Below, one piece after another: positions 12,917-33,540 of a stretch of 64,000 bases of DNA. Origin of the DNA: an uncultured Gammaproteobacteria bacterium (GTDB lineage: Bacteria > Patescibacteriota > Microgenomatia > CAZETR01 > Amesbacteraceae); NCBI GenBank assembly GCA_964502885.1, contig CAZCXU010000001.1, forward strand, positions 93,352-157,351, in the 5' to 3' direction. The notes under the pieces were generated by a model, which saw only the letters and a list, made by a program, of their open reading frames with translations, made no database searches and was not told where the DNA came from. Within the stretch, counting starts at the first letter, position 1; every line of letters begins with the position of its first letter. The translations under genes were made by a program, and so were the position numbers.

Positions 12917-14275
12917 ATGGATAAGGAAAAAACCTGGACAAGTGTACTCGCGTCCCTAAAAACTGAAGTGTCTGAGGGAATTTTTAACACCTATCTGAAA
13001 AATACTCACATTGTAGACATCCAGGAAAATGATCAACGAACAATTTTTGAAATAGGATGCAACTCCACATTTATAAGAAACACATTAGACCTTCGCTATC
13101 ACGGACAAATTGCTAGGGAATTATCCAGAGTAACAGGCAAAACAGCAGAGGTGGTAATTAAAGTTGCGGAAAAGAAAATTGAACTTGATGAAAAAGGAAC
13201 TCTTTTTGAGACACCCAAGGCCACCGTTTTTTCTGATGCATGGAGAAAGGCCAACCTGAAAGCTGACTTTACCTTTGAAAATTATGCTGTGTCCGGAAGC
13301 AACCAGATGGCGTATGCGGCCGCACAGGCCGTGGCGAAAAAATTGGGAGAAACATACAATCCATTGTTTATATACGGTGGGGTGGGGGTGGGGAAAACAC
13401 ATTTAATGCAAGCGATAGGTCACGAAGCCTTGCGAAATTCAAATGGACAGGTATTGTTTTGTTCCGGAGAGGAATTTACGAATGACCTAGTCGAAGCTAT
13501 TAGATTTAAAACTACGGATAAAGTTAGATCAAAGTATCGCAAAGTAAAACTTCTCATGATTGATGATGTGCAATTTATTGCCGGAAAACCCACAGTGCAG
13601 GAAGAATTTTTCCATACGTTTAACGCTATACAGCGCGACGGGGGTCAGGTCGTTATGACATCAGATAAGCCCCCCGGAGAAATTGCCAAGCTAGAGGAAA
13701 GGCTGAGAAGCCGGTTTGGGGCTGGCTTAATTGTCGACGTAGGGCCGGCAGACTTTGAATTGAGATCTGCAATTGTTCTAATTAAAGCCAAACAAAGAAA
13801 CATGGAAATCTCAATGGAAACAGCTCAAACGATTGCGGCAAATGTTACCGGAGTGCGAGAACTACAGGGGGCATTAATTAAACTGGAAACAGAAGAGCGA
13901 ATTCGGGGAAAAAAATTAGACATGGAGGAAATTTTGAAACTTTTGAATGTTCAAAACGAAGAAGCTATTAAATCCAGATTTATTACTCCAACTGAAGTCA
14001 TAAACCAGATCGGAAATTATTACGGAGTGGGCGTGCAACAACTTAAGGGTGAGAAAAGAACCAAGACGATTGTTTGGCCACGACAAATATTAATGTTTAT
14101 ATTACGCCACGATCTTAAACTACCATTGGAAGAAGTTGGAAGGCTGCTGGGAGGAAGAGACCACACCACAGTATTGCACGCCACAGACAAAGTCCGAGGG
14201 GAATTGGACCAGAACCATAAATTTGCAGCCGAAATGGCGGATGTTAAAAGAAAAATCTTTGGTGGTGGAGCATAA
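12917..14275 (+). CDS. dnaA: Chromosomal replication initiator protein DnaA
   Basis: Contains the AAA+ Walker A GGVGVGKTHLMQA, Walker B LLMIDDVQF, and the C-terminal DNA-binding domain (WPRQILMFILRHDLKLPLEEVGRLLGGRDHTTVLHA). Confidence 0.97.
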   Translation: MDKEKTWTSVLASLKTEVSEGIFNTYLKNTHIVDIQENDQRTIFEIGCNSTFIRNTLDLRYHGQIARELSRVTGKTAEVVIKVAEKKIELDEKGTLFETPKATVFSDAWRKANLKADFTFENYAVSGSNQMAYAAAQAVAKKLGETYNPLFIYGGVGVGKTHLMQAIGHEALRNSNGQVLFCSGEEFTNDLVEAIRFKTTDKVRSKYRKVKLLMIDDVQFIAGKPTVQEEFFHTFNAIQRDGGQVVMTSDKPPGEIAKLEERLRSRFGAGLIVDVGPADFELRSAIVLIKAKQRNMEISMETAQTIAANVTGVRELQGALIKLETEERIRGKKLDMEEILKLLNVQNEEAIKSRFITPTEVINQIGNYYGVGVQQLKGEKRTKTIVWPRQILMFILRHDLKLPLEEVGRLLGGRDHTTVLHATDKVRGELDQNHKFAAEMADVKRKIFGGGA

Positions 14276-14528
14276 CGACATGAACAATTTGTGGACAAAG
14301 TGTGTGCGGGCAGGGGATGGGAGGAAAAAACTTGTGAATAAACACAATAAGTTGTTCACACCTAGTGGATTTTTTTTAATTTATCCACAATAATGTGCAC
14401 AAGTTTACATAGTAGGTTTTACACAAGAAATTAACCCGAAAGTTGAGTGCGATAATGCAAAATAATCAACTTATCCACAATACCTACTACTGAGACGACT
14501 ATTTTAGATATAAAAATATCGATACCGA
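14276..14528. other. Probable oriC (DnaA-box cluster plus AT-rich unwinding region)
   Basis: Perfect TTATCCACA boxes lie at 14381..14389 and 14471..14479. One-mismatch boxes are TGTGGACAA (14290..14298, reverse) and TGTGAATAA (14333..14341, reverse). Two-mismatch boxes lie at 14352..14360 and 14394..14402. An AT-rich stretch ATTTTAGATATAAAAATATCGATA lies at about 14501..14525. A further perfect box (TGTGGATAA, reverse) at 12887..12895 sits upstream of dnaA. Confidence 0.7.
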
Positions 14529-15647
14529 ATGAAAACAACAGTTTTACAAAGTGATCTGGCAAAATGTTTGGGAACAGTCAGCAGAGTGATACCCAGCAGA
14601 GGGCAGTTGCCTGTGTTGGCAAATGTGCTATTGGAGGCACGCAAAGATGGATTGACCCTAGTAGCAACAAATCTGGAACTTGGAATTCGTGTAATGGTGG
14701 GGGGAAAGATTGAGGAGGAGGGTGACATAACTATTCCGGCGAAAAACTTAACTGAATTTGTATCATCGTTGCCTGCAGGGAGCGTTGATCTATCGACTGA
14801 TGGGGAGAAGATGCTTATTAAGGGCGGAAAGCTATCTGCGACCTTTACAGGGATTTCAGCGATGGAATTTCCGGTGGTACCAAAGATCGAAAGTGTACAA
14901 GGTGGACGAATAGTAAAGATTAAAAGGGCGATGATGGAAAAAGTTGCAAAACAAGTTGCTTTTGCTGCAGCTACAGATGAGAGTAGGCCAGTTTTGACAG
15001 GTGTGGTTTTTATGAGTGAGGGAAATATATTGAAAATTACGGCAAGTGATGGATTTCGATTGAGCAGGAGATTTATTGAGATGGAAAGGGGGTTATGGTT
15101 ATCGGATAAAAGGTTGATTCTTCCGGCAAGAACACTATTGGAGATGTCAAGAATTGCAGCAGAGGGTAAAAAGGAAGAGATTGAGATGGCTGAAATAGCT
15201 GAGAATAACCAGGTTATTATGGCTTACGATGGAATTCAGCTTACATCGCGGATACTGGAGGGTAATTTTCCTGATGTAGAAAAGATTATTCCCGTGGATA
15301 CCAGAACAAAGATTACTCTTGATAGGCAGGAAATGCTGCGGGCGGTTAAGGCAGTGGGGATATTTGCAAGGGACAGTTCGAATATTATCAGGCTTAGAAT
15401 TCAAGATGGCGGGATGATGGTGGAGGCAAGCGCTACTCAGACAGGAGAGAGCACTGTTGAATTGGAAGGGGAGAAGACTGGAGACGATGGACAGATTGCT
15501 TTCAATTACCGGTTTGTGTTGGACTTTTTGAATAGTGTGGATAGTGAGAGAGTTACCTTTGGAATGAATGACAGCCTGGCCTCAGGGTTGTTTGGAATTG
15601 ATGGTGACAATGAATTGCTGCACTTGATAATGCCGGTAAGAGTCTAA
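14529..15647 (+). CDS. dnaN: DNA polymerase III subunit beta (sliding clamp)
   Basis: 372 aa, beginning MKTTVLQSDLAKCLGTVSRVIPSRGQLPVLANVLLEA and ending LMPVRV. The position after dnaA and the three-domain length are typical. Confidence 0.95.
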   Translation: MKTTVLQSDLAKCLGTVSRVIPSRGQLPVLANVLLEARKDGLTLVATNLELGIRVMVGGKIEEEGDITIPAKNLTEFVSSLPAGSVDLSTDGEKMLIKGGKLSATFTGISAMEFPVVPKIESVQGGRIVKIKRAMMEKVAKQVAFAAATDESRPVLTGVVFMSEGNILKITASDGFRLSRRFIEMERGLWLSDKRLILPARTLLEMSRIAAEGKKEEIEMAEIAENNQVIMAYDGIQLTSRILEGNFPDVEKIIPVDTRTKITLDRQEMLRAVKAVGIFARDSSNIIRLRIQDGGMMVEASATQTGESTVELEGEKTGDDGQIAFNYRFVLDFLNSVDSERVTFGMNDSLASGLFGIDGDNELLHLIMPVRV

Positions 15648-16161: not shown

Positions 16162-17028
16162 TTAACCACCGCAGAAATAATTTTCAGGACGAACCCAAAC
16201 TCCGTCTATCTGTGCCTCTAGGTGAAGGTGTGTATTGTTTCCCTGATCAAATAGTGCGGTAACAACTGTACCAGATATGGCATCTGTAGCGTAGGAAGAT
16301 GGCACCATAACATGAGTAAGTACTAAGTGGACAGATGTTGTGCCAGACGTTGTGTCGCAGTAGATGGTATTTCCGACTGAACCATTGGCGAATCCGTAAC
16401 GACATGACCAATTTACACTGACACCGTTTACTTGTGGAAGGACCACTCTGGTATCAGAGGAGAATACGTCAGCTGCAAAACCATATTCTGAGCACGAAGC
16501 TCCTCCCCCGGGCTGGTTACAGCGATTTCCATCAGGTGGGGTGGAGGTCCGACAACCGGACCCTTGTGGTATAGAGTAACAACTACCTCCGTATACGTCT
16601 TCCCAGTAATAAGAACTACCGTGTCCTCCCGAGCGATTGTGTTCCTGTGTGGGATTGTAAGAACCAAGAGATATGACTCCTCCAGGGATAGGGCAACTGC
16701 TGGGGTCAGCAAAACCTCCTCCGGGATCAAAAACTCCACCACCTCCAAAGCCGAATCCAAAACGAGAAACCGGAGTTACGAATCCTGAGCTGTTAATTAC
16801 TATTACAGCCATTAGGATGAAGCCAAAAAATATCGCCGTTGCCAACAATGCGATGAAAGCTGTTCCCAGTAGAGTGACTGCGTCGGCAATAAGGTGTTTT
16901 TTGAAATCTGTACCAAATGTTAGAAGTTTGCCGTAAGAAAAGCTTGATATTTTGGTGATATTAATGCTAAAAGCTGATCGAAGGCGACCAATGAGAGGAT
17001 TTATGGGGCCAATAGATAAACTAGCCAT
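16162..17028 (-). CDS. Membrane-anchored, Cys-rich M23/LytM-like peptidase candidate
   Basis: Has a TM helix (LLGTAFIALLATAIFFGFILMAVIVI), a Gly-rich spacer and nine Cys residues. The C-terminus VLTHVMVP...NNTHLHLEAQIDGVWVRPENYF resembles the M23 HxH motif region, and GGHGSSYYWED is a possible HxxxD motif. Confidence 0.5.
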   Translation of the reverse strand: MASLSIGPINPLIGRLRSAFSINITKISSFSYGKLLTFGTDFKKHLIADAVTLLGTAFIALLATAIFFGFILMAVIVINSSGFVTPVSRFGFGFGGGGVFDPGGGFADPSSCPIPGGVISLGSYNPTQEHNRSGGHGSSYYWEDVYGGSCYSIPQGSGCRTSTPPDGNRCNQPGGGASCSEYGFAADVFSSDTRVVLPQVNGVSVNWSCRYGFANGSVGNTIYCDTTSGTTSVHLVLTHVMVPSSYATDAISGTVVTALFDQGNNTHLHLEAQIDGVWVRPENYFCGG

Positions 17029-17033
17029 TATTC

Positions 17034-17321
17034 TTAATGATGATTAATTTCTTCAAGTAATATGAGCGGAAGTTTGAGCAAATGATCCTTTTCTTCCTGA
17101 TAAGGGTCGGAGAAATGTTCATCTGTAGAGTGTGTTTCCACTTCGCGGCGAAGCTCTTCTGTGCTTTTGTGGAGGACCTGCCCAGCCCATTGCCAAAGCG
17201 GGTCAGCGTCTGTTTTGAACTGATCAAAATTATGACAGGAATTACAGATTTCAATTACGGCGTTTTCCAGACTGCTGACGACAGATGGATTTATGTAGTC
17301 AGGGTAGGCAAAAGTGTTCAT
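17034..17321 (-). CDS. Small acidic cytoplasmic hypothetical protein, translationally coupled to the VirB4-like gene
   Basis: 95 aa with no hydrophobic segment. Its start overlaps the VirB4-like stop by 4 nt. Confidence 0.5.
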   Translation of the reverse strand: MNTFAYPDYINPSVVSSLENAVIEICNSCHNFDQFKTDADPLWQWAGQVLHKSTEELRREVETHSTDEHFSDPYQEEKDHLLKLPLILLEEINHH

Positions 17322-19183
17322 TTTGATTCAGGAACCAGTATTGGTTTGGTTTGAGTTTCAGCTTGTTTTTGAGCTAATATTTCGGAGGGTTTGGTGGTAA
17401 TTAGCTTGTGTTCGTCCGGGGATGCTACAAAGCGAACAGCTACGTGATTGTTTCCTGCAAAAAACAGACCTTCTCCAACGTTTGCTGACAGGAGAAGGTG
17501 TTTTTCTCCCTCGGAGAGATAGAAGACCTGGGAAATTTTGTCGACTCCCGCTGGTGATTGTTTCATGAGTATTTGTAGGGAAGAACTGGTGACGATGGCT
17601 TTGCCGTAATCAGTGTTCAAAAAGTCTTCTACGTCCTGAGTAATAGTGGTAAGACCGAGAAAATACTTACGAGCGCGTTTGGCGACGCTGTAGAGGAAAC
17701 TGGCTGAGTCGGGATAACGCATGAGATACCAGGCCTCGTCTACCACAAGAATGCGTTTCTTGAGGTCGCGGCGCATTTTTGTCCAGATATAGTCAAGAAT
17801 GAGAAAGATAGCAATGGGCTTGAGAGAATCTTCGAGATCGCGGACAGAAAAAACTGTAAATTGATTTTTTAGTTGAATATTTGATGGCTGATCGACTATT
17901 CCGGTAAAACTTCCCTTTACAAATCGTTCTAGGCGATCAGCAAGAGATAGGGCTATGGGTTCTTCCATGCCAATGAAAGCTTTGTAAAGATCTTCCATTA
18001 GCGGGGGAGTATTTTTTTGTGTAGCGGGATCAGGGGTGATACCTTTCATACGATAAGCGAGATTGAGGGCGCGATCGAGAAGTGCGTCTTCTGTGGGGCT
18101 AAGGTTTCCCATGATGACTTTGAACATGGAATGCAGCGATTGAATTTTGAGATTAAGCTCGTTTTCATCTGAATTTTGGGTAAGAAGGGAAAGATCAAAG
18201 GGGTTGATGCGATTTTGAGAATTGTAGGAGAAATTGATGTAGTCGCCTCCTACGGCATCACAGAGGGCTTTGTATTCGTTTTCAGGATCTATAACGATTA
18301 TTTCTGTACCAAACATCATGGAACGAACCAGTTCAAGTTTAATGGTGTAAGACTTTCCCGCACCGGATTTGGCGAATACTACTGAGTTGGCGTTTTCCAG
18401 AGAGAAGCGATCAAAAATGACCAAACTGCCGTTGTGCTGATTTATTCCATAGAGGATGCCGTCATTGCTGGTGAGCTCTGATGAGGTGAAAGGGAAGGTG
18501 GTGGCCAGAGAGGTGGTGTCCATGTTTCTGGTGACCATAAGATGGTCGATACAGGTGGGGAGGGTGGTTTTGAAACCTTCAGCCTGCTGGAGGAGTGTGG
18601 GTGTAGAGGCCACTAGAAGAGATGAAAGGGAGCTAGTGACCTGTTTACTGGCAGTTTCAAGTTCGGAGGGGGAATCGGCGGGAATGGTGACATAGAGAGA
18701 GAATTGAAAGAAGCGTTCGATGCCTTTGACGAGTTGATCCTGAAGAGCCAGAGCGTCTTCGAGTTTGGCTTGGGTTACAGGATCGACAACGCGGCCGCGT
18801 TGGGCGTCAGTGTTTAGCTCGGCTTCCATTTCGGCAATCTTTCGACGCAGATCGTCGAGCGTGGACTTGCTTTCTACAGGATAGATGAACATGGAAATAT
18901 TTAGTGAATGGTCAAAATTAATGATGGGACTAAGCCAGTTGCTGGAGACGAAGCGGCGGTTTATTGAGGTGAAGTAGGTGCGGAAATATGTGTCGTTGAT
19001 TTTTAATGAATTGAAATCGATGGTAATGTTTTGTGGGGCGATGATATCCTTGACTGTTTTGGCCTGGGATAATTCTTTTTGGGGGAGAGCCATATTTGTG
19101 TCTGGGACGTTACCGGAGACCTGAGTTGCAGGAGTGGCAGTTTTTTTGACGGGGGTAAGGTTAGGGAGTTTTGGTAGCTTCAT
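17318..19183 (-). CDS. VirB4/TrbE/PrgJ-type type IV secretion ATPase
   Basis: Contains Walker A VVFAKSGAGKSYTIKLE and Walker B KRILVVDEAWYLM. The N-terminal domain has the usual APQNITIDFNSLKINDTYFRTYF...YP pattern of Gram-positive VirB4 homologs. The C-terminal segment is GLTTITQDVEDF...LQILMKQ. Confidence 0.85.
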   Translation of the reverse strand: MKLPKLPNLTPVKKTATPATQVSGNVPDTNMALPQKELSQAKTVKDIIAPQNITIDFNSLKINDTYFRTYFTSINRRFVSSNWLSPIINFDHSLNISMFIYPVESKSTLDDLRRKIAEMEAELNTDAQRGRVVDPVTQAKLEDALALQDQLVKGIERFFQFSLYVTIPADSPSELETASKQVTSSLSSLLVASTPTLLQQAEGFKTTLPTCIDHLMVTRNMDTTSLATTFPFTSSELTSNDGILYGINQHNGSLVIFDRFSLENANSVVFAKSGAGKSYTIKLELVRSMMFGTEIIVIDPENEYKALCDAVGGDYINFSYNSQNRINPFDLSLLTQNSDENELNLKIQSLHSMFKVIMGNLSPTEDALLDRALNLAYRMKGITPDPATQKNTPPLMEDLYKAFIGMEEPIALSLADRLERFVKGSFTGIVDQPSNIQLKNQFTVFSVRDLEDSLKPIAIFLILDYIWTKMRRDLKKRILVVDEAWYLMRYPDSASFLYSVAKRARKYFLGLTTITQDVEDFLNTDYGKAIVTSSSLQILMKQSPAGVDKISQVFYLSEGEKHLLLSANVGEGLFFAGNNHVAVRFVASPDEHKLITTKPSEILAQKQAETQTKPILVPESK

Positions 19184-19832
19184 TTTTGACTGATGGAACG
19201 GGAACTTTTGGTAAGGTAACGTTTGTTCCCATTACATCCTGATTATAGGAATTAAAAAATAACTGTAATAGTTCATTTGAGGTTATTTGGCGCCCTTTAA
19301 GACCTATGCGAGCGAGAAGTCGCAACAAATGATCTCTTTTGGGAACAAGGTTTGTAATGGCCCGATCAACTATATAGTCTTTGGGGAGAGTGGTATTTGC
19401 TGACTTACCTCCCAGAACTTTCAGCGAAGAACCAACACCTAATTCAAGTGAACTAAATGGCAAAGATATGTAGAATTTTTTATCCAACACATTTCCCTGA
19501 CGAACGATGGCTTTGACGAAGTCGCGATATTTAGTAAGCTGTTCCTTGAGCTTTGATGTGGTGATTTGGGCAAGGTGAGTGTCCAGTTTTTCGATATAAC
19601 TGGAAATATCTTTTCGTTTGCTGATGAGAACGATTTGGATGGAAAAAGTGAGTGAGTTTAGAAGCTGTGCGTAGGCATAAATGGTGGCGTCCTGCTCTCT
19701 TTCTGAAAGAAGACCAAAGTTGACGGCGCTAATTTCCATGACCATACAGGCCGAGCCGTCTTTGAGAATGACGATGTCGTTTTGAATATCTTCAATGTCC
19801 AGATGATCTTGTGTGCGGGGGGGGATAGTCAT
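19161..19832 (-). CDS. Hypothetical protein resembling a stand-alone VirB4 N-terminal domain
   Basis: I chose the start at ATG 19832 (MTIPPRTQDHLDIEDIQNDIVILKDGSACMVMEISAVNFGLLSEREQDATIYAYAQLLNSL), 8 nt after the upstream stop. The pattern (TQD.L.I..I.d.iv.lkDGs....eisa.NF.L.se.Eqd) is typical of the extreme N-terminus of Gram-positive VirB4-like ATPases. No P-loop is present. Confidence 0.55.
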   Translation of the reverse strand: MTIPPRTQDHLDIEDIQNDIVILKDGSACMVMEISAVNFGLLSEREQDATIYAYAQLLNSLTFSIQIVLISKRKDISSYIEKLDTHLAQITTSKLKEQLTKYRDFVKAIVRQGNVLDKKFYISLPFSSLELGVGSSLKVLGGKSANTTLPKDYIVDRAITNLVPKRDHLLRLLARIGLKGRQITSNELLQLFFNSYNQDVMGTNVTLPKVPVPSVKNEATKTP

Positions 19833-19839
19833 ACTTTTT

Positions 19840-20931
19840 TTAGGTTTTTCCGTGAATAATAACAGGGCTAATAATACTGCCTTTGGCTTGAATAGAAACC
19901 GGGTCAAAAGTTAAACCTTCCTTTTCGGCGATGACGTTGTAAGTTCCGGCTGGCAAGGGAATGGCAATTTGGAACTGACCGAGACGATTGGTTCTTAGGG
20001 CCCGTGCAGGAATACCTGTCTTGGTATCAATAATCTCTACAGTTGTTTGTGCTAACGGCTGGGAAGCTGCATCTACAACCATGCCGGTGAGAATATTCGG
20101 ACTGGCAGGATTGGGAAGCTGAGTGGTGACTGTAGCAGATGGGGCTGAAGGAATATTTACAGGTTTGGGAAGCGGGGGAGTGTTAGCAACAACAGCTGAA
20201 ACACCAGAGGAGGTGAGAATTGGTGAGGTAGGAGTGGTGGGTGTAGCTAAAACTGTTTGTGGTGACGCTTCGGCGTGGGGTGTGCCTGCCGATGAGAAAG
20301 AGGTTGAGATGGTTGGAGTTGAGGTGGAATTTTTAACTGGAGATGTAAAGACTGGTTGGGCGCGTGCAGGGGAAGTGGGGATAGGTGCAGAAGAAGGGGC
20401 AGATGTAGGGATAATGGGGGGAACAGTTGAATTAGGAGCGGGTGTGGGAACAATGGAGGAAATGGCTGAGTTAGGAGTAGTTGATGGAGGTAGAGTTTTT
20501 GCGGTGGACATCTGCGGTTCAATTTTTATGGCAGCAGGAATTGGTGCCGGAACGGTGGTGACTGGTTGAGGTGTAGGTGGCGACGGTGGAGCGGCTGTTG
20601 CAGTGGGTGTGATTGGTGGGGGTGGGGCAAGGCTCGCAACGATTTCGTCAGAGATCCAGACATACTCAGTGGGAGAATAGATGGCTTTAAAAAAAGCGAC
20701 GAGCCAAGTGGTAAAGGGTCGATTGTTGATAGGGATAAAGGCCATGAGTGCACCCGTGGTGATGGAAATAAAAACCAGCGGGTATTTGATTATGGGGATT
20801 AATTGGAGACGGAAAATGAGCACCCCCACAACAATGCCTCCTGCCAGCTGGAGAAATTGCTTGAGGGTCATATCGCCCACGAGACGGAACTCGTAGGAGG
20901 AAATATTTTGCGGGACAGGGTGGTTATCCAT
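19840..20931 (-). CDS. PrgI/VirB3-like membrane protein fused to a long P/T/S/A-rich linker and a C-terminal CarboxypepD_reg-like beta-sandwich
   Basis: The N-terminus VPQNISSYEFRLVGDMTLKQFLQLAGGIVVGVLIF plus a second TM helix matches the PrgI family pattern. Residues about 100-290 are low-complexity P/T/S/A. The C-terminus is TGMVVDAASQPLAQTTVEIIDTKTGIPARALRTNRLGQFQIAIPLPAGTYNVIAEKEGLTFDPV. Confidence 0.65.
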   Translation of the reverse strand: MDNHPVPQNISSYEFRLVGDMTLKQFLQLAGGIVVGVLIFRLQLIPIIKYPLVFISITTGALMAFIPINNRPFTTWLVAFFKAIYSPTEYVWISDEIVASLAPPPPITPTATAAPPSPPTPQPVTTVPAPIPAAIKIEPQMSTAKTLPPSTTPNSAISSIVPTPAPNSTVPPIIPTSAPSSAPIPTSPARAQPVFTSPVKNSTSTPTISTSFSSAGTPHAEASPQTVLATPTTPTSPILTSSGVSAVVANTPPLPKPVNIPSAPSATVTTQLPNPASPNILTGMVVDAASQPLAQTTVEIIDTKTGIPARALRTNRLGQFQIAIPLPAGTYNVIAEKEGLTFDPVSIQAKGSIISPVIIHGKT

Positions 20932-24020: not shown

Positions 24021-25751
24021 TTAGGATGTACCACCTGCGGGAGGGACAGGTCTTCGAATGTTGGCTTCTTTGGCTTTGGAGACTTGCTGACCAGCCGAAG
24101 TCAATTGTCCCATGGTGTCTTTGGCCATCTTTTCAACAAAGTCAGAAGGATCTACAGACTTACAGAACATGTTCTTAACCATGGTTGCTATGTTGGGGGC
24201 GAATGACATGGCCCCTACGAAAACTGCATATTGGACGAAAATATTACTGGGCATGTCAAATAAGGGAAAGTTGGCTTGGTTGTTAAAAAAGAAGCCTATG
24301 TCTCCGGCGAATCCTGGGACGGGAGTGCGAGTGTCAAACCCTGCATTAATTAGAATTGCTAAGAGAGCATATGTCACAAAAATTGAGGCATTGCCGATGA
24401 GACAAAGAAGCCATTTTTTAAATCCACCAAAATCAGATTTCTTCGATGGGATAATATCGAAAATAATTATTAGCGGGCCGGCGACAACCAGAAGATTAAA
24501 AGTAATAAAGGCGACCACAAATTGACCAATAATTCTGGCCCAGACGTAAATTGACCAAAGGAAGAAACCAAGAATGAAACCAGCTATGAGAACAACCACT
24601 CCTCCAGAAGCAAGATTAAGCAGTGCAGCTAGAACTATAGTGAGAATTATCAGTACTATGGAAACAACTATCCAAAAGGCAAGGAAATGCCAGACAAAAT
24701 CAAAACCGCCTCCAGCTAAGGTGGACATAGCAAGCGGCAAGTCAGTTATAATTGTCATGCCGATAGCTGTTTGGGCAAAATAAAGCATGCCAATAATTGC
24801 GGAAATGGCTAAGTACATCAGGTCAATTACGAAGCCGGCAATGGCGTATGAAAAGAGAACCAACACAATAGATATGGCAATGCGGGGAATAACCATTTGA
24901 ATTGTTACCGAGACTTGCGGAGATATTTTTGAACGGAACATAACCATAAAACCAGCAATGATGATAATCAGGGTGGTAATTAATAGTGCGATGTTTCGAG
25001 TGGCGATCCAAAATGCTCGGGTAGGAGAGTCTGTCGTTCCGGTACCACCCAAGCCAAGTCTTTCGTAACCACTTCCTTGCGCAAACGTGTCCGAGACAAT
25101 GTTGAGTTTTGAAGCAAGTTGTTTAGTTTCAGACCAGGCTGAGGGGAGGGTGTCAATTTGTGATGAGATATAGTAGGTAAGCTTGAGTACTCCAATATAA
25201 CTTTGACCTATGAATCCATATTTATTAACAAATGCCAGATCAGAAGAAGAAAAATTTTGAGTGACGAGCATGCTGCGGGCAAGATCTATCGCTGTGAGTA
25301 AATCAGTGATGTTTTGCAAAAGGGCTGCTGGATCAGGAGAAGATATAACTGAGGGAAATAACATCGAAGAGAGAGAGTTGAGGATCCAGTTTACTTGAGC
25401 GTAGGTGTAGCGCTCACCAAAAATTTCGTCGGGATTTGTATTGTCGAAAACTTTTTGCTGGAACTCCTGAATTGAAGGATTGTACCAAGGGTGTGGTGTT
25501 ACTTCGGCGAAGAACAAACGGGAGATTTCGTAGATGAGATAGGAGCAACGTGCTGCATCACCGAAAGGGTTGGGGGAAATGGCTTGACAGGCAGCATCTG
25601 CCTGAGCGCACAGCGGCTCGGCGGGATCACAGGTCGGTTGGGCAAGAACCGGTGATGGTGTGATAAATACTGTTAACCCTATGAATAGAAACGAAAGGGT
25701 AAAAAGGTATTTTTTAATCAGCATTGAAAGATGTTTTGTCATGGAAGACAT
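24021..25751 (-). CDS. VirB6/TrbL-like polytopic membrane protein candidate
   Basis: 576 aa with a signal/anchor (LFTLSFLFIGLTVFITPSPVLAQP) and a roughly 230-aa extracytoplasmic region carrying 4 Cys. At least 6 long hydrophobic helices follow (for example ALLITTLIIIIAGFMVMF, IAISIVLVLFSYAIAGFVIDLMYLAISAIIGMLYF, WHFLAFWIVVSIVLIILTIVLAALL), ending in a hydrophilic tail. The call rests on topology and neighbourhood, not on a sequence motif. Confidence 0.5.
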   Translation of the reverse strand: MSSMTKHLSMLIKKYLFTLSFLFIGLTVFITPSPVLAQPTCDPAEPLCAQADAACQAISPNPFGDAARCSYLIYEISRLFFAEVTPHPWYNPSIQEFQQKVFDNTNPDEIFGERYTYAQVNWILNSLSSMLFPSVISSPDPAALLQNITDLLTAIDLARSMLVTQNFSSSDLAFVNKYGFIGQSYIGVLKLTYYISSQIDTLPSAWSETKQLASKLNIVSDTFAQGSGYERLGLGGTGTTDSPTRAFWIATRNIALLITTLIIIIAGFMVMFRSKISPQVSVTIQMVIPRIAISIVLVLFSYAIAGFVIDLMYLAISAIIGMLYFAQTAIGMTIITDLPLAMSTLAGGGFDFVWHFLAFWIVVSIVLIILTIVLAALLNLASGGVVVLIAGFILGFFLWSIYVWARIIGQFVVAFITFNLLVVAGPLIIIFDIIPSKKSDFGGFKKWLLCLIGNASIFVTYALLAILINAGFDTRTPVPGFAGDIGFFFNNQANFPLFDMPSNIFVQYAVFVGAMSFAPNIATMVKNMFCKSVDPSDFVEKMAKDTMGQLTSAGQQVSKAKEANIRRPVPPAGGTS

Positions 25752-29484: not shown

Positions 29485-29880
29485 TTAGGAGCAGCCGATG
29501 CCTCTGGCTATACAGATATCAAATATTCCCAAATTGATACCGAGGAAAGTGCCAATAAGGTTGACTATTACGAATGCTGACAAGGTGATTATTAATCCTG
29601 CAAGAGAAAAGATAATTGTATTTCTTGCTTGTTCGGTTTGGGCTTTGTCTGCTCCTGCAGCTAGATACTTGTATCCACCAATAACCAGAAATCCTAAAGA
29701 AATGAAAACAAAAAGGCTGATGATTGCGGTAATCGCAGCGGCTATTACTCTATTTAGGTTCTGGAGCATTGCGGGCGGAGTAGGGTTTGCAATTGTTGTT
29801 TGAGCTTGAGCGACAGTAGGCCATGCTAATACGAATACAGATGCGGCCAACGTGATCAGTGAGCGAATTGTTGTGTACAT
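29485..29880 (-). CDS. T4SS pilin-like paralog 11 (VirB2/TrbC-type), divergent, with Sec signal peptide
   Basis: The signal peptide ends AWPTVAQAQ. The core is ISLFVFISLGFLVIGGYKYLAAGADKAQTEQARNTIIFSLAGLIITLSAFVIVNLI, i.e. two TM helices around a charged loop. The C-terminus ends CIARGIGCS. Confidence 0.7.
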   Translation of the reverse strand: MYTTIRSLITLAASVFVLAWPTVAQAQTTIANPTPPAMLQNLNRVIAAAITAIISLFVFISLGFLVIGGYKYLAAGADKAQTEQARNTIIFSLAGLIITLSAFVIVNLIGTFLGINLGIFDICIARGIGCS

Positions 29881-29896
29881 CTGTTTTTAATATAGG

Positions 29897-29936
29897 GCAA
29901 AAAAACAACCCCGGCAAGGGCCCGGGGTTGTTTTGG
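29897..29936 (-). terminator. Strong rho-independent terminator after pilin paralog 10
   Basis: An 11-bp perfect stem pairs AACAACCCCGG (29904..29914) with CCGGGGTTGTT (29922..29932) around a 7-nt loop. On the minus strand the hairpin is followed by a T7 run (complement of A 29899..29905). Confidence 0.75.
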
Positions 29937-29960
29937 CCATTTCTGGCCGGTTCCAAAAAC

Positions 29961-30323
29961 TTATGAACCAATCGTTGCGAGATTGAATTCGATAAGGTTG
30001 ACGTTGAAGAGAACACGCAGAATGTACAGTAAGGCGTAAGCAGAGAAGACGATTGCCAAACCGATTAAGGCGGCAGTGATCTTCTTGCGAGCTTTTTCGG
30101 TACCTTCTTTGTCTCCACCAGCGAGAATCCATTGTAAACCACCCCAAAGTAGGATGATAAAGGAAGCTACGCCAGCGATACCCAACATAAGATTCAAGAT
30201 GGTTCTCAAGAAATCTGATGGGGTATAGTTCTTCAAAGTGTCGAAACGTGTATCGACGTTAGCCACGCTACCGACATCCGAGTCTGGAATAGGAAGAGCA
30301 AGTTGTGCAAGTAGTCTCATCAT
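29961..30323 (-). CDS. T4SS pilin-like paralog 10 (candidate major pilin)
   Basis: Starts at ATG 30323, 5 nt after the SD-like GGTGAG. The core is IAGVASFIILLWGGLQWILAGGDKEGTEKARKKITAALIGLAIVFSAYALLYILRVLFNVNLIEF. It is flanked by its own candidate promoter and by the terminator at 29897..29936. Confidence 0.8.
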   Translation of the reverse strand: MMRLLAQLALPIPDSDVGSVANVDTRFDTLKNYTPSDFLRTILNLMLGIAGVASFIILLWGGLQWILAGGDKEGTEKARKKITAALIGLAIVFSAYALLYILRVLFNVNLIEFNLATIGS

Positions 30324-30348
30324 CAAATCTCACCGCCTTTCAGTGGAA

Positions 30349-30357
30349 AGTATAACA
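30349..30357 (-). promoter_or_regulatory. Extended -10 element (TGTTATACT on the minus strand) upstream of pilin paralog 10
   Basis: The plus-strand AGTATAACA at 30349..30357 is the reverse complement of TGTTATACT. It lies in the only sizeable gap (53 nt) within the pilin array. Confidence 0.35.
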
Positions 30358-30379
30358 TAAAATCAGTGCCGGAGGCTAA

Positions 30380-30754
30380 TTAGAGGGGTGTGATAGTGTA
30401 CTCAATGAGATTGACGTTGAAGAGGGTACGGATGATATACAGAATCGCATAGGATGAAAATACGATAGCCAATCCTATGAGAGCATAGCTGATTTTGCGG
30501 CGAGCTTTCTCGACTGCGTCTTTGTCGGATCCAGCGGTAATCCATTGAAACCCACCTATTAGGAGGAATAAGAATGCGGCAACACCTGACAGGCCCAGGA
30601 GGGCAAGAATCGACGTGCGGATATAGCTGGCGGGCTGAATATTGTAGGTGTTAGCAAAAGGAGAGTTGGGGTCGCGTAGATCTATTAATTGCTGGGCATC
30701 AATAGAAGGAGGAAAGAGAAGCAAGCTTGCCAGGAGAGCGAGAATCAGTTTCAT
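30380..30754 (-). CDS. T4SS pilin-like paralog 9, with Sec signal peptide
   Basis: The signal peptide is MKLILALLASLLLFPPSIDAQ. The core is LSGVAAFLFLLIGGFQWITAGSDKDAVEKARRKISYALIGLAIVFSSYAILYIIRTLFNVNLIEY. Confidence 0.8.
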   Translation of the reverse strand: MKLILALLASLLLFPPSIDAQQLIDLRDPNSPFANTYNIQPASYIRTSILALLGLSGVAAFLFLLIGGFQWITAGSDKDAVEKARRKISYALIGLAIVFSSYAILYIIRTLFNVNLIEYTITPL

Positions 30755-30782
30755 GTGAGTTCGAGTTTATAAGAAAGGGTTG

Positions 30783-31454
30783 TCAGTTACAAGGGATGCA
30801 GGTAATCAGGCCACATCCAGTCGTGCCGAGCGGAGTCCAAGAGCCGTTTGATTCGCATCGGAAACATGGACCATTTATGACAGATGTTGATCCTAACGTG
30901 CCTGCCGGAATGCATCTTCCAGTTGCAGATCCGCCACAGGCACACATGCCGGATGGTGGGGTGATGTCGCAGCCGGGATCTGTGGGGTTAGTACAAGGAA
31001 TCCCTGAATCCCAGGGATCACTACCAGGAGCAGGTGGGTTGGGGTCGTTGATCTGAGAGGAAATTTCCCCGATATGTCCGAGGTTGAATTGAATTAAATT
31101 GATGTTAAAGAGGGTGCGGAGAGCAAAAAGGAAACTGTAGGCTGAAAAAACAATTACCAGTCCAATTAAAGCCTGAACAACCTTTCTGCGGGCTTTTTCA
31201 ATTGCGTCTTTATCACCACCAGCCAGTATCCACTGAATACCGCCGATAAGCAGGAATATAAAAGAAAAAACTCCTGCCAGTTGGAGGAGAAGGTTTAGAA
31301 GTGTGGTCAATATCATTGATGGGGTGAGGCTGCGAATTGTCGTAAAATCCGGATCGACGTTTTGTTCTATGCCAATGTAGTCTTGTGCTTTTGCGGTTGC
31401 AGGCATTAAGAACATAGAAATAACTGTGGAGATGTGAACCAGGTGGTTTCGCAT
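30783..31454 (-). CDS. T4SS pilin-like paralog 8 with signal peptide and a C-terminal 12-Cys extension
   Basis: The signal peptide ends PATAKAQ. The core is LAGVFSFIFLLIGGIQWILAGGDKDAIEKARRKVVQALIGLVIVFSAYSFLFALRTLFNINLIQF. A roughly 90-aa tail follows: PCTNPTDPGCDITPPSGMCACGGSATGRCIPAG...CFRCESNGSWTPLGTTGCGLITCIPCN. Confidence 0.8.
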   Translation of the reverse strand: MRNHLVHISTVISMFLMPATAKAQDYIGIEQNVDPDFTTIRSLTPSMILTTLLNLLLQLAGVFSFIFLLIGGIQWILAGGDKDAIEKARRKVVQALIGLVIVFSAYSFLFALRTLFNINLIQFNLGHIGEISSQINDPNPPAPGSDPWDSGIPCTNPTDPGCDITPPSGMCACGGSATGRCIPAGTLGSTSVINGPCFRCESNGSWTPLGTTGCGLITCIPCN

Positions 31455-31460
31455 GGGTAA

Positions 31461-31802
31461 TTAGAGGTTTCTTAAGGTGAATCCAATCGGATTTACATTA
31501 AATAGGACACGCAATATATAAAGAATGGCGTAGGAAGAAAAGACGATAACTAAACCTATCAGCGCGTTGATGATTTTACGGCGGGCTTTGTCGATACCAT
31601 CTTTGTCGCCACCGGCAGTAATCCACTGAACTCCACCCCAGAGCAGATAAATAAAGAAGCCAACACCAGCAAGACCCAAGAGAAGACTGATGGCTGTAGC
31701 GACATAAGCGGAGGGTTTGAGGTTTGTAATGTAGTCGTAGTTGCTGTCACCAGAATTGACAGTGATGGGAACAAATTGAGCCAATAGGTGTTGGTTGATC
31801 AT
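31461..31802 (-). CDS. T4SS pilin-like paralog 7
   Basis: The N-terminus is MINQHLLAQ. The core is LAGVGFFIYLLWGGVQWITAGGDKDGIDKARRKIINALIGLVIVFSSYAILYILRVLFNVNPIGF. Confidence 0.8.
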   Translation of the reverse strand: MINQHLLAQFVPITVNSGDSNYDYITNLKPSAYVATAISLLLGLAGVGFFIYLLWGGVQWITAGGDKDGIDKARRKIINALIGLVIVFSSYAILYILRVLFNVNPIGFTLRNL

Positions 31803-32131
31803 AGTTCAGGAACGTTGAGGGAGAGAATCGAGACGCCAAATAACACTTCGATTATCCAAATGATTACGAATGAAGAAAGAAGTATGGCAATTCCAATAAG
31901 GGCATTACGAATACGGTGTGTGGCTTTCTGGACGCCTTCCTTATCTCCGCCGGCGGTGATATAGGCAAAACCACCCATTAACAAGTTGACGAAAAAATAA
32001 ATTCCACTTAATCCCATGACGGCATTTAAGACGTTTCTTAGTAGCAACTGGACCATGCTGTCAGCCTCGTTGACGTTGATATTTCCGATTTGACTGTTGA
32101 CCGCAGGGTTGACGATGGTAAACAGATACAT
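31799..32131 (-). CDS. T4SS pilin-like paralog 6
   Basis: The core is LSGIYFFVNLLMGGFAYITAGGDKEGVQKATHRIRNALIGIAILLSSFVIIWIIEVLF. It overlaps the next gene by 4 nt (ATGA). Confidence 0.75.
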   Translation of the reverse strand: MYLFTIVNPAVNSQIGNINVNEADSMVQLLLRNVLNAVMGLSGIYFFVNLLMGGFAYITAGGDKEGVQKATHRIRNALIGIAILLSSFVIIWIIEVLFGVSILSLNVPEL

Positions 32132-32134
32132 ATT

Positions 32135-32518
32135 TTAAGGTGAAGCAACAATTAACTGCAATCCGAGACGAAAGATGTCCAATCCCAGGAATCGGCCAAT
32201 GATTCCAATTAGTCCGTATGATCCAACAACTATGAACATACCCAATATGGAAGTGGAAAGACGTTTTTTGCTTACCTCCACGGTATTTTTATCGCCACCG
32301 GCACCAATCCACTGCATTCCGGAAAGGACTATTTGATAGATGAACCAAAGTGACGCGACTATAGTGAGTAAACCGAGGATAGAAGAAACAAATTTTTCCA
32401 ACATATCTCCGGGCCCTCCACCTGTGCCAGTCATAAAAAGTCCTGAATGTCCAAATGTACCCAGAGGTCCGACACCGTCAATGTTTCCCAAGTTGACTTG
32501 AGCTAAAAGGTTTCTCAT
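32135..32518 (-). CDS. T4SS pilin-like paralog 5
   Basis: I chose the start at ATG 32518 (MRNLLAQVNLGN...), which gives a 4-nt ATGA overlap with the upstream stop. The core is VASLWFIYQIVLSGMQWIGAGGDKNTVEVSKKRLSTSILGMFIVVGSYGLIGIIGRFL. Confidence 0.75.
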   Translation of the reverse strand: MRNLLAQVNLGNIDGVGPLGTFGHSGLFMTGTGGGPGDMLEKFVSSILGLLTIVASLWFIYQIVLSGMQWIGAGGDKNTVEVSKKRLSTSILGMFIVVGSYGLIGIIGRFLGLDIFRLGLQLIVASP

Positions 32519-32874
32519 GGGGTGAATATCCGTGGTGAAATAAGCGTGTTCCATCCATTAATACCATACAGGAAGAGGCCGATGACGCTGGCGATGACTA
32601 ATGATCCGGTGACTATGGCTAGTCCCAGAAAGGATTGCCAAATGCGCTCGTGGGCTTTTTGGACCATTTTGGGGTCGCCATTTGCGCTTAAGTATCCATA
32701 CCCTGCCAAAATTAGATTGATCAATGTGTATATACCAGCCAGGATTATGGAGAGTCGGATGAGGCTGCTAAGAATTAAGATAAGACCTTCGCCCTGAGTG
32801 CCAGCTGCGAGTCTGGGATTGTTGTATCCGGATGTCCCAAATGGATTGTCGATAGTGCCGAATGCTCCTAACAT
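32515..32874 (-). CDS. T4SS pilin-like paralog 4 (divergent)
   Basis: The core is LAGIYTLINLILAGYGYLSANGDPKMVQKAHERIWQSFLGLAIVTGSLVIASVIGLFL. Confidence 0.7.
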   Translation of the reverse strand: MLGAFGTIDNPFGTSGYNNPRLAAGTQGEGLILILSSLIRLSIILAGIYTLINLILAGYGYLSANGDPKMVQKAHERIWQSFLGLAIVTGSLVIASVIGLFLYGINGWNTLISPRIFTP

Positions 32875-32880
32875 AGTTTT

Positions 32881-33231
32881 TTAGACGAATGGCGGGTCAA
32901 TTAAGTTTACACCTGTAATGGTAGATATAATCTGAAGTATAAAATAAGCACTAATGACTAGCAATAAGCCCAGAACTCCATAAGTGACGGAATTTTTTCC
33001 TTGCTGAACACGTTGTGGAGGGTTGATTTGTCCGCCAAAGATAATTAGTAAGTAACCTCCGTGGATGATGAGATAAATGAAATAAAGACTGGCGATTGCC
33101 ATGGCATTGAGGAGTAAGAGAGAGACAATATCGCCCAATTGACCACGGAAAGGGGAGGTGGCCCCAACGTTGGGATGGTTGACGAAAAACTTGTCTTGCA
33201 AGTTTACTGGCGGGTTAAGAAGCTGAAACAT
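32881..33231 (-). CDS. T4SS pilin-like paralog 3 (divergent)
   Basis: The core is IASLYFIYLIIHGGYLLIIFGGQINPPQRVQQGKNSVTYGVLGLLLVISAYFILQIISTITGVNLI. Confidence 0.7.
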   Translation of the reverse strand: MFQLLNPPVNLQDKFFVNHPNVGATSPFRGQLGDIVSLLLLNAMAIASLYFIYLIIHGGYLLIIFGGQINPPQRVQQGKNSVTYGVLGLLLVISAYFILQIISTITGVNLIDPPFV

Positions 33232-33234
33232 TTT

Positions 33235-33540
33235 TTAGATTAAGTTGGTGCGGGTAATAGTTTGAATTATTTGCAAAATAAAGAAGGCACTAACTACAGT
33301 AAGGAGGCCAAGAAGCGCGTTGGTGATCTGTCTTTTTATCTGCATGAGTTTGGCTTCGTCGCCCAGGCTTCCCATATATGCGAATCCCGCTGTAATCAGA
33401 TGGTAAAGAAAATAGAGTCCGGCTCCGGCCATGGCAAAGAGAATAGTGCGAGAGGCGATTGTTGAGGGTAGTGTGGCACTGGTCGAGAATCGGCCGGAGG
33501 TGTGGATGAAATCGGGAATCTGAGCTAAATGTGAGTTCAT
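33235..33540 (-). CDS. T4SS pilin-like paralog 2 (divergent)
   Basis: The N-terminus is MNSHLAQ. The core is GAGLYFLYHLITAGFAYMGSLGDEAKLMQIKRQITNALLGLLTVVSAFFILQIIQTITRTNLI. Its start overlaps the upstream stop by 1 nt (TAATG). Confidence 0.7.
   Translation of the reverse strand: MNSHLAQIPDFIHTSGRFSTSATLPSTIASRTILFAMAGAGLYFLYHLITAGFAYMGSLGDEAKLMQIKRQITNALLGLLTVVSAFFILQIIQTITRTNLI

Follow-up and report, generated by a model that had tools for sequence, protein, structure and literature searches.

What does the membrane anchor of a type IV secretion system (T4SS) do with a long disordered tail that ends in a globular domain, and on which side of the membrane does this tail lie? The question is raised by a gene located within a stretch of 64,000 nucleotides (nt), hereafter the window, taken from contig CAZCXU010000001.1 of assembly GCA_964502885.1 and attributed in GTDB to the Amesbacteraceae (Patescibacteriota, Microgenomatia). 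The gene encodes a protein of the PrgI/VirB3 family bearing a C-terminal extension of about 265 amino acids (aa). It is a true gene, and its product is the VirB3/PrgI subunit, in an extended form typical of the lineage, of a T4SS of Patescibacteria type (MPF-FATA-like) encoded on the chromosome. That the extension is a cytoplasmic docking module is a proposal to which we give a probability of roughly 55%. An earlier annotation made from the DNA alone (the original prediction) had proposed a three-part protein with its C-terminal domain displayed on the cell surface.

The layout then proposed, i.e., a PrgI/VirB3-type module with two transmembrane (TM) segments, a low-complexity linker, and a CarboxypepD_reg-like beta-sandwich, was borne out by Pfam, AlphaFold2 (AF2), and Foldseek, hidden Markov model (HMM) searches and structure prediction recovering PF12666, a disordered tail, and a PF13620 sandwich. 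The start of the 363-aa protein, MDNHPVPQN, agrees with the family consensus M-x-Q-H-P-V-P-Q-N. PF12666 (PrgI) was matched at aa 5-90 with 33.6 bits (gathering cut-off 27), covering profile positions 1-89 of 91, and PF13620 (CarboxypepD_reg) at aa 281-340 with 36.4 bits (gathering cut-off 32.3). The AF2 monomer model, built from a 91-sequence alignment, reached a predicted template modelling score (pTM) of 0.43, and full-length homologues shared 33-54% identity with the protein. The profile match, the membrane hairpin, the helix that follows it, and synteny all place the protein in the PrgI/VirB3 family. Its size does not: the family is characterised by proteins of 10-15 kDa with short cytoplasmic extensions, and its canonical members, correctly described at the outset as two-TM proteins of about 100 aa, span about 100-120 aa (117 aa in pCF10 PrgI). 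The linker had likewise been rightly recognised as a long stretch of low complexity rich in Pro, Thr, Ser, and Ala (P/T/S/A), but its end had been put at aa ~290, about 25 aa too far, the structured domain starting at aa ~262 and its Pfam core at aa 281. An HMM search of all the open reading frames (ORFs) of the window found no further copy of either module, and an exact-sequence database look-up of the protein returned no record.

The extended form is conserved well beyond this contig. The full-length search yielded 810 matches, and the best 120 were almost all PF12666+PF13620 proteins of 245-432 aa, the closest belonging to Amesbacteria and other Microgenomatia. Relatives were encoded in at least 424 GTDB species genomes (one genome scanned per species), and in each of the best 80 of these the alignment ran in a single frame over query residues 1 to ~362. 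These 80 include the complete chromosomes CP011214, CP055308, CP066686, and CP066693, with Woesebacteria among the complete chromosomes. The N-terminal module alone (aa 1-100) retrieved 1,735 clusters at 50% identity, 1,256 of them at E<=1e-10. Conservation is bimodal, the N-terminal tail, the helix after TM2, and the core of the beta-sandwich being nearly invariant and the tether between them varying freely.

This pattern bears on the possibility that a sequencing or assembly error within the low-complexity stretch fused a PrgI gene of about 100 aa to a separate small beta-sandwich gene, or that the tail is non-functional read-through. Such an artefact could account for the few database entries holding the C-terminal domain alone, and for the 31 of the best 150 N-module matches that lack the domain found in the other 119. 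However, those 31 look truncated or frameshifted, and searching for homologues of the C-terminal domain by itself gave only 10 short entries (67-153 aa) that lack signal peptides, look like internal-start or partial gene calls, and are uninformative on other architectures or on localisation; overall, the partial entries resemble internal starts, contig ends, or frameshifts, with linkers that end mid-way. The C-terminal domain, moreover, retains seven invariant and many near-invariant positions over 91 sequences. No tandem repeat was found in the DNA encoding the tether, so that its low complexity resides at the protein level, and a repeat-collapse artefact was ruled out. Conservation of the fusion across independent assemblies, without a DNA repeat, excludes the joining of two ORFs by error that the original prediction had named as its possible undoing, and we give the artefact explanation virtually no credence.

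The most conserved part of the protein is the N-terminal tail preceding TM1, in which H4, P7, Q8, F15, L17, V18, G19, D20, M21, and T22 are invariant across the 91 sequences and which, judged by eye, is akin to the pre-TM1 motif VEKKIWGITVREF of pCF10 PrgI. The predicted local distance difference test score (pLDDT) of this tail was low in the AF2 monomer, modelled without a partner; by analogy, the tail may be a cytoplasmic element that binds VirB4/TrsD. Kyte-Doolittle windows reached 1.2-2.1 only within aa 17-71, where one hydrophobic block (aa ~21-70) resolves into two helices modelled with a pLDDT of 84-97. Invariant R71 lies three residues past TM2, ahead of an amphipathic helix that corresponds to the "C-terminal alpha-helix" described for VirB3 (PMC12857230). 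Around this helix F80, Y85, P87, and T88 are also invariant, and conservation is at least 90% at P72, F73, W76, A79, A83, and W92. On our own reading of the sequences, the N-terminal tail and the post-TM2 helix, both within the PF12666 match, are the counterparts of the cytoplasmic elements of VirB3; by eye, both are akin to the K/R-rich cytoplasmic tails of pCF10 PrgI.

Synteny points the same way as the profile. Directly downstream of the extended PrgI gene lies a gene for a 223-aa TrsD-like protein, which appears to be the direct partner of the extended PrgI and which matched the NCBIfam profiles VirB4_plasma (positions 83-229, E 2.7e-9, 35 bits versus a cut-off of 590) and TrsD (E 8.9e-6, 25.7 bits versus a cut-off of 200), in both cases far below the cut-offs; its position and its conservation among related loci fit the assignment, and a PDB sequence search with this protein gave no meaningful match. 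The 621-aa VirB4 ATPase that follows scored 377.5 bits against conju_CD1110 (cut-off 325) over profile positions 183-734 of 752, i.e., without the N-terminal ~180 aa, the part that the TrsD-like protein would supply. VirB4 appears to be split into two proteins, whose ORFs overlap by 23 nt (19161-19183), and the same split was seen in 68 of 79 related loci. A TrsD-like gene occupies the position directly downstream of the extended PrgI in 71 of the 79 usable loci, and an unsplit VirB4 in three more (74/79 in total). One Parcubacteria locus carries the extended PrgI ahead of an unsplit 797-aa VirB4, beside dnaN/dnaA.

Past the post-TM2 helix, the tether (about 165 aa, aa ~96-260) was modelled without secondary structure at a pLDDT of 45-60. 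Its composition over aa 101-275 is 25% Pro, 17% Thr, 14% Ser, and 13% Ala (69% P/T/S/A), with five Lys/Arg and two Asp/Glu residues (4% charged). Neither sequence nor length is conserved among relatives, in which the tether measures 57-274 aa and ranges from P/T-rich to K/E-rich: charged residues make up at least 20% of the linker in 26 of 155 relatives, K+R reaches 21%, W-K-K-K often stands at the linker start directly past the helix, and Woesebacteria-type relatives have K/E/Q-rich rather than P/T-rich tethers. An amphipathic motif, [ES]xx[FLVYA][LIFV]xx[ILFV]xx[LIVM][FWM], was found in the tethers of 89 of 197 relatives as against 2 of 197 shuffled tethers, for example as NLEEAEKTFLSKITGLFSL and LDMIESQLIARFSQIF, and lies around aa 118-145 in relatives L006-L070, P0057, P0116, and P0118. 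Neither the window protein nor its relatives in Amesbacteria have this motif, which may be a second contact site. Opposite the linker-coding DNA, an antisense 148-aa ORF (20123..20569, plus strand) was judged to be a by-product of the skewed composition of Pro/Thr-coding DNA and rejected as a gene.

The C-terminal domain has a genuine CarboxypepD_reg fold. AF2 modelled it (aa ~262-363) with eight strands at a pLDDT of 96-98, in line with the prealbumin-like sandwich of 7-8 strands expected of that family, and not docked on the hairpin. Foldseek aligned it with transthyretin-like domains of carboxypeptidases N/D (E 2.6e-6 to 3e-5), as well as with CnaB and SlaB (E 2.6e-6 to 1e-4 overall), the structures 2nsm, 3mn8, and 5aq0 matching at E 2.6e-6 to 5e-5, and the family profile matched carboxypeptidase M in the PDB (E 0.0034). 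Invariant across the 91 sequences are G283, E299, P308, R310, A311, G318, and F342. The window domain carries the family-specific motif G-I-P-A-R-A-L-R-T-N-R-L-G-Q-F, a variant of the nearly invariant family core G-I-P-x-R-A-L-R-T-N-K-L-G-Q-F.

On which side of the membrane this domain lies can be approached through the better-known members of the family. VirB3/PrgI proteins have a C-terminal helix in addition to their two TM helices, and their N- and C-terminal extensions are short, with both termini in the cytoplasm (PMC12857230), and in the R388 structure helix a1 of VirB3 lies around the N-domain of VirB4, with a2 and a3 crossing the membrane (PMC9259494). With an even number of TM helices (two), an N-terminus placed inside by homology, and no third TM segment, the extension would emerge on the cytoplasmic side. 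No third TM-like segment was found past aa 95 among 79 relatives (maximum 19-aa hydropathy: median 1.09, top value 1.69), and in the ten relatives displayed the hydropathy peak past aa 95 lay at or near the beta-sandwich. The idea that a third TM helix hides within the linker or the post-TM2 segment was consequently rejected on the hydropathy of the window protein and of the 79 relatives. Hydropathy also revealed no TM segment in the TrsD-like protein or in VirB4. As for charge, pCF10 PrgI has K/R-rich tails and a "PD" inter-helix loop devoid of positive charge; in all 156 relatives analysed the tails exceeded the loop in K+R (means 1.9 and 3.5 versus 1.5), the difference being at least 1 throughout, commonly 2-3, and up to 8. 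The K/E-rich tethers, with W-K-K-K straight past the helix, are hard to reconcile with export. On such homology- and sequence-based grounds, the extension quite probably lies on the cytoplasmic side.

The linker that spans the cell wall and the surface-exposed domain of the original prediction found no support in the canonical N-in/C-in topology, the lack of a third TM segment, the K+R bias in 156/156 relatives, the soluble partners, or the K/E-rich linkers. The surface-display idea is probably wrong: homology, hydropathy, and K/R counts suggest that the C-terminal domain is cytoplasmic, which is the outcome it had named as its own refutation, with the charge bias of the window protein itself being weak (2/2/2). 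That weakness is one of several points that weigh against a cytoplasmic docking module. In the window protein and its Amesbacteria relatives, positive charges number two in the N-terminal tail, two in the loop (R41, K49), and two in the C-terminal flank. P/T/S/A-rich, nearly uncharged linkers and CarboxypepD_reg/CnaB sandwiches are far commoner in extracytoplasmic proteins, and the best Foldseek matches of the sandwich are mostly secreted or surface proteins. The docking function, finally, is a proposal, and the partner is putative.

In the mechanism that we propose, the N-terminal ~95 aa form the usual two-helix membrane hairpin and are, as homology and synteny show, the VirB3-type anchor of the TrsD/VirB4 ATPase; the conserved N-terminal tail and post-TM2 helix would clamp the soluble TrsD-like/VirB4 ATPase to the membrane. 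Since both ends of the hairpin would be cytoplasmic and no TM segment follows, the remaining ~265 aa would emerge on that side as a flexible tether of variable length and composition, extending up to tens of nm and tipped by the conserved beta-sandwich. If each machine contains six VirB3 subunits, as in R388, the VirB4 barrel would be ringed by six such domains on their tethers. The sandwich is near-invariant while the tether drifts, and it holds an insertion, peculiar to the family, that includes an Arg. Its binding partner is probably conserved as well; the sandwich would then be a tethered docking module, whose binding surface is perhaps the P-x-R-A-L-R insertion. Candidates for the partner are another machine component, at the base of VirB4 on the cytoplasmic side, and a substrate or adaptor.

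Two other readings of the extension deserve weighing, and both seem to us unlikely. According to one, the extension is exported, with the Pro/Thr-rich tether crossing the peptidoglycan or S-layer, the sandwich exposed at the surface or wall, and the VirB4 anchor thereby linked to the envelope or pilus base in place of VirB8/VirB10. The linker composition of the window protein is indeed like that of wall-spanning linkers, tethers 57-274 aa long could extend over tens of nm, and the fold class is mostly extracellular; P/T-rich stretches recur in two other proteins of the locus, a 168-aa TM+Big_5 protein and a 1220-aa secreted one. The inter-helix loop with R41 and K49 (K49 in at least 70% of relatives) is unlike that of canonical PrgI, VirB8 is largely undetected in Patescibacteria (PMC12102498), and a VirB10 homologue is unknown in monoderm systems (PMC12857230). 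Nevertheless, an outside location requires either that the hairpin be inverted in the manner of Lep (N-out/C-out) or that a third passage across the membrane has gone unrecognised, and no third TM segment was seen. It would also set the N-terminal tail and the C-helix, which match the VirB4-binding cytoplasmic parts, away from the soluble TrsD-like/VirB4 proteins. The tails-over-loop charge bias of all the relatives counts against it too, as do invariant R71 so close to TM2, the K-rich segments that many relatives have directly past the helix, the K/E-rich linkers, and a Saccharibacteria orthologue with a helical KIX/TFIIS-like domain. We accordingly regard an exported location as improbable, and equally doubtful the variant in which a non-canonical topology, or export of the tail by the very machine it belongs to, would let six long arms traverse the wall, the sandwiches forming the wall- or pilus-proximal ring of a monoderm, pilus-building T4SS and a single polypeptide taking on the work of VirB8/VirB10 besides that of VirB3.

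The other reading keeps the extension in the cytoplasm and gives it a structural or regulatory role rather than one of partner capture: the six sandwiches would oligomerise or fold back on VirB4/TrsD, gating or stabilising the ATPase ring as a VirB11-like cap or an autoinhibitory plug, or the tether would space machines apart. A sandwich highly conserved across lineages on a drifting tether fits a conserved contact with the machine, the amphipathic motif in the tethers of many relatives suggests a second intramolecular or machine contact, and no VirB11 homologue was seen at the locus. Yet oligomerisation and VirB4 contact are conjectural, neither the window protein nor its nearest relatives have the motif, and the domain does not dock on the hairpin in the AF2 monomer. 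We consider this possibility as improbable as export, and the cytoplasmic docking module remains the reading that we prefer.

The extended PrgI is widespread and already present in databases, under the names "PrgI family protein" or "hypothetical", and is undiscussed in the literature searched: no mention of the extension or of the PF12666+PF13620 combination was found in the papers searched on Patescibacteria T4SS or in T4SS reviews of 2025, in which the Patescibacteria PrgI homologue is treated as an ordinary VirB3. The only related record is a supplementary table giving another fold for the Saccharibacteria orthologue (PMC10633639). The Patescibacteria T4SS is the only one reported to be essential for the growth of its owner, and the genes classed as essential include that of PrgI (PMC10633639, PMC12102498). 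Throughout this large clade, the VirB3 anchor is extended by a long tether that ends in a strongly conserved globular domain, and in Saccharibacteria a different domain is found in the same place; the VirB3 C-terminus thus looks like a lineage-specific attachment point for an extra function. If cytoplasmic, the sandwich is a ready-made bait for substrates or partners of the machine; if extracellular, it would represent a new solution to crossing the monoderm wall.

The surrounding genes (Table 1) make up a full Patescibacteria-type T4SS locus, in agreement with the published layout, in which VirB4, TrsD, PrgI/VirB3, and VirB2-like pilins lie near the origin (Quinonero-Coronel et al. 2025; PMC12102498). 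VirB8, VirB10, and VirB11 are missing or undetected in Patescibacteria T4SS, and the coupling protein is usually not in the locus; neither a coupling protein nor a VirB11 homologue was seen here. A T4SS beside dnaA/dnaN is typical of Patescibacteria (PMC12102498), and loci L001 and L002 have the same dnaA/dnaN adjacency, with recorded Pfam DnaA/DnaN domains. PF18895 was matched by all ten of the pilin ORFs scanned (seven above the gathering cut-off), and in the eleventh (33235..33540) two TM segments are likewise joined by a charged loop. The polytopic membrane protein matched nothing in Pfam or NCBIfam; its position and architecture make it a candidate VirB6-like subunit, a component that is hard to detect in Microgenomatia (PMC12102498).

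Table 1. Coordinates of the extended PrgI gene, of the regions of its product, and of neighbouring T4SS and replication genes in the window.
Feature	Position	Strand	Description	Basis
Extended PrgI/VirB3-family gene	19840..20931	(-)	363 aa plus TAA stop (19840-19842), ATG start	ORF list, Pfam, homologues
N-terminal tail, aa 1-22	20866..20931	(-)	MDNHPVPQNISSYEFRLVGDMT; most conserved stretch of the protein	inside PF12666 match
Transmembrane hairpin	20737..20865	(-)	TM1 aa 23-41, turn aa 42-45, TM2 aa 46-65	Kyte-Doolittle, AF2 (helices H23-41 and H46-65)
Post-TM2 amphipathic helix, aa 73-85	20677..20715	(-)	PFTTWLVAFFKAI	AF2 helix H73-85
Disordered tether, aa ~96-262	20146..20646	(-)	P/T/S/A-rich, almost uncharged	composition, AF2
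Transthyretin-like (CarboxypepD_reg) beta-sandwich, aa ~263-363	19843..20145	(-)		PF13620, AF2, Foldseek
TrsD-like protein (putative VirB4 N-terminal domain as a separate protein)	19161..19832	(-)	223 aa; ATG 7 nt past the stop of the extended PrgI	NCBIfam
VirB4 ATPase (CD1110 family)	17318..19183	(-)	621 aa	NCBIfam conju_CD1110; Pfam P-loop_TraG, AAA_10, DUF87
Polytopic membrane protein	24021..25751	(-)	576 aa; 6-7 TM, preceded by a signal/anchor and an outside domain of ~220 aa	hydropathy
VirB2-like T4SS pilin paralogues	29485..34055	(-)	11 in tandem	PF18895 T4SS_pilin
dnaA and dnaN	12917..15647	(+)	452 aa and 372 aa; beside the T4SS cluster	size, order, DnaN-like sequence

Several further features of the window were recorded. 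Two of the pilins bear Cys-rich extensions, unusual for T4SS pilins, at the C-terminus of a 223-aa protein (30783-31454) and at the N-terminus of a 171-aa protein (33540-34055). The 168-aa Big_5 protein with P/T-rich stretches is TM-anchored and encoded downstream of the T4SS PrgI. A 1220-aa secreted Cys-rich protein (25798-29460, minus strand) contains poly-Pro/Thr stretches. Downstream, a 288-aa protein anchored in the membrane (16162-17028, minus strand) is rich in Gly and Cys and has an H-L-H-L-E motif. Neither of these two matched a Pfam or NCBIfam family or gave a meaningful PDB match, and their position makes them candidate wall remodellers or adhesins. A 926-aa ORF (21182-23962, plus strand) lies midway through the T4SS locus, divergent from the PrgI gene; it showed no TM segment, signal peptide, or Pfam or NCBIfam match, and may encode either a substrate or a component of the machine in the cytoplasm. 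GC skew was positive in every 2-kb bin of the window (positions 1-64000; 0.04-0.45), irrespective of gene strand, with no sign change near the assigned dnaA/dnaN (12.9-15.6 kb). A tmRNA gene lies at 40240-40639 on the minus strand (Rfam, 94 bits), for which ARAGORN gave the long tag peptide ARVEGFVAKVNPFNSIFSTQFAPRMLYA, ending in LYA. Finally, many metagenome-assembled genomes (MAGs) carrying a PrgI-TrsD-VirB4 locus of Candidate Phyla Radiation (CPR) type (loci L010-L082) are titled "uncultured Gammaproteobacteria" or "uncultured Pseudomonadales", labels that are almost certainly wrong because the loci match those of Microgenomatia.

Among known systems, the closest parallel is the inner-membrane subunit that anchors VirB4, represented by PrgI of the Enterococcus faecalis plasmid pCF10 and by VirB3 of Agrobacterium and TrwM of R388. 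The window protein shares with it PF12666, the two-TM hairpin with its C-terminal helix, a conserved pre-TM1 motif, and a gene position directly upstream of virB4. It is the Pfam HMM, a common layout, and our own reading of the motifs that tie the protein to pCF10 PrgI, BLASTP of the N-terminal module against pCF10 PrgI not being significant. Unlike that protein, with its 117 aa, K/R-rich tails, and "PD" loop, the window protein has a weak K/R bias in its tails and two positive charges in the loop, and its ~165-aa tether and ~100-aa sandwich are without counterpart.

An extended relative is nonetheless known from Saccharibacteria: SEML1_0010 of Ca. Southlakia epibionticum ML1, a "PrgI family protein" of 300 aa (903-bp gene) with PF12666 at aa 5-90 (PMC10633639 supplement). 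Its locus shares with the window the order VirB4 ATPase, ~290-aa protein, PrgI, and it is essential in transposon sequencing (Tn-seq) as part of an essential T4SS (PMC10633639, PMC12102498). For its C-terminal region the annotation gives a helical ECOD fold (TFIIS domain 2/KIX), as opposed to the transthyretin-like sandwich of the window protein, a comparison drawn from the supplementary table. By analogy, this fold, of a type typical of intracellular proteins, would favour the cytoplasmic side. Natural VirB3-VirB4 fusions, such as those of Campylobacter plasmids (PMC12624023; PMC12102498), offer a second precedent: the C-terminus of the hairpin continues into a known cytoplasmic domain, so that an extension is tolerated there and its side is indicated. 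None has been found in Patescibacteria (PMC12102498), and in the window the appendage is a tether with a sandwich instead of the ATPase, VirB4 being separate and itself apparently split.

VirB10, the TonB-like component that spans the envelope in diderm T4SS, is superficially alike in combining a membrane anchor, an extended proline-rich region, and a C-terminal beta domain, and it contacts VirB3/VirB4 at the inner membrane (PMC12624023). It has, however, one TM helix and a Pro-rich region outside, whereas the window protein has two TM helices and a tail that probably lies on the cytoplasmic side; no sequence or fold relation between the two was found. The transthyretin-like domains of carboxypeptidases D/N/M and CnaB, instead, have the same fold as the window domain (root-mean-square deviation 2.3-3 A over 82-94 columns), and those of the carboxypeptidases share with it the fold motifs T-(D/N)-x-x-G-x-F and G-x-Y. 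In the alignment with carboxypeptidase M, the R-A-L segment is inserted, the P-(A/V)-R-A-L insertion with invariant R310 being present only in the PrgI-extension family. Unlike its relatives in carboxypeptidases and CnaB proteins, the window domain is borne by a T4SS membrane subunit, not by a peptidase or a surface fibre, and is probably intracellular.

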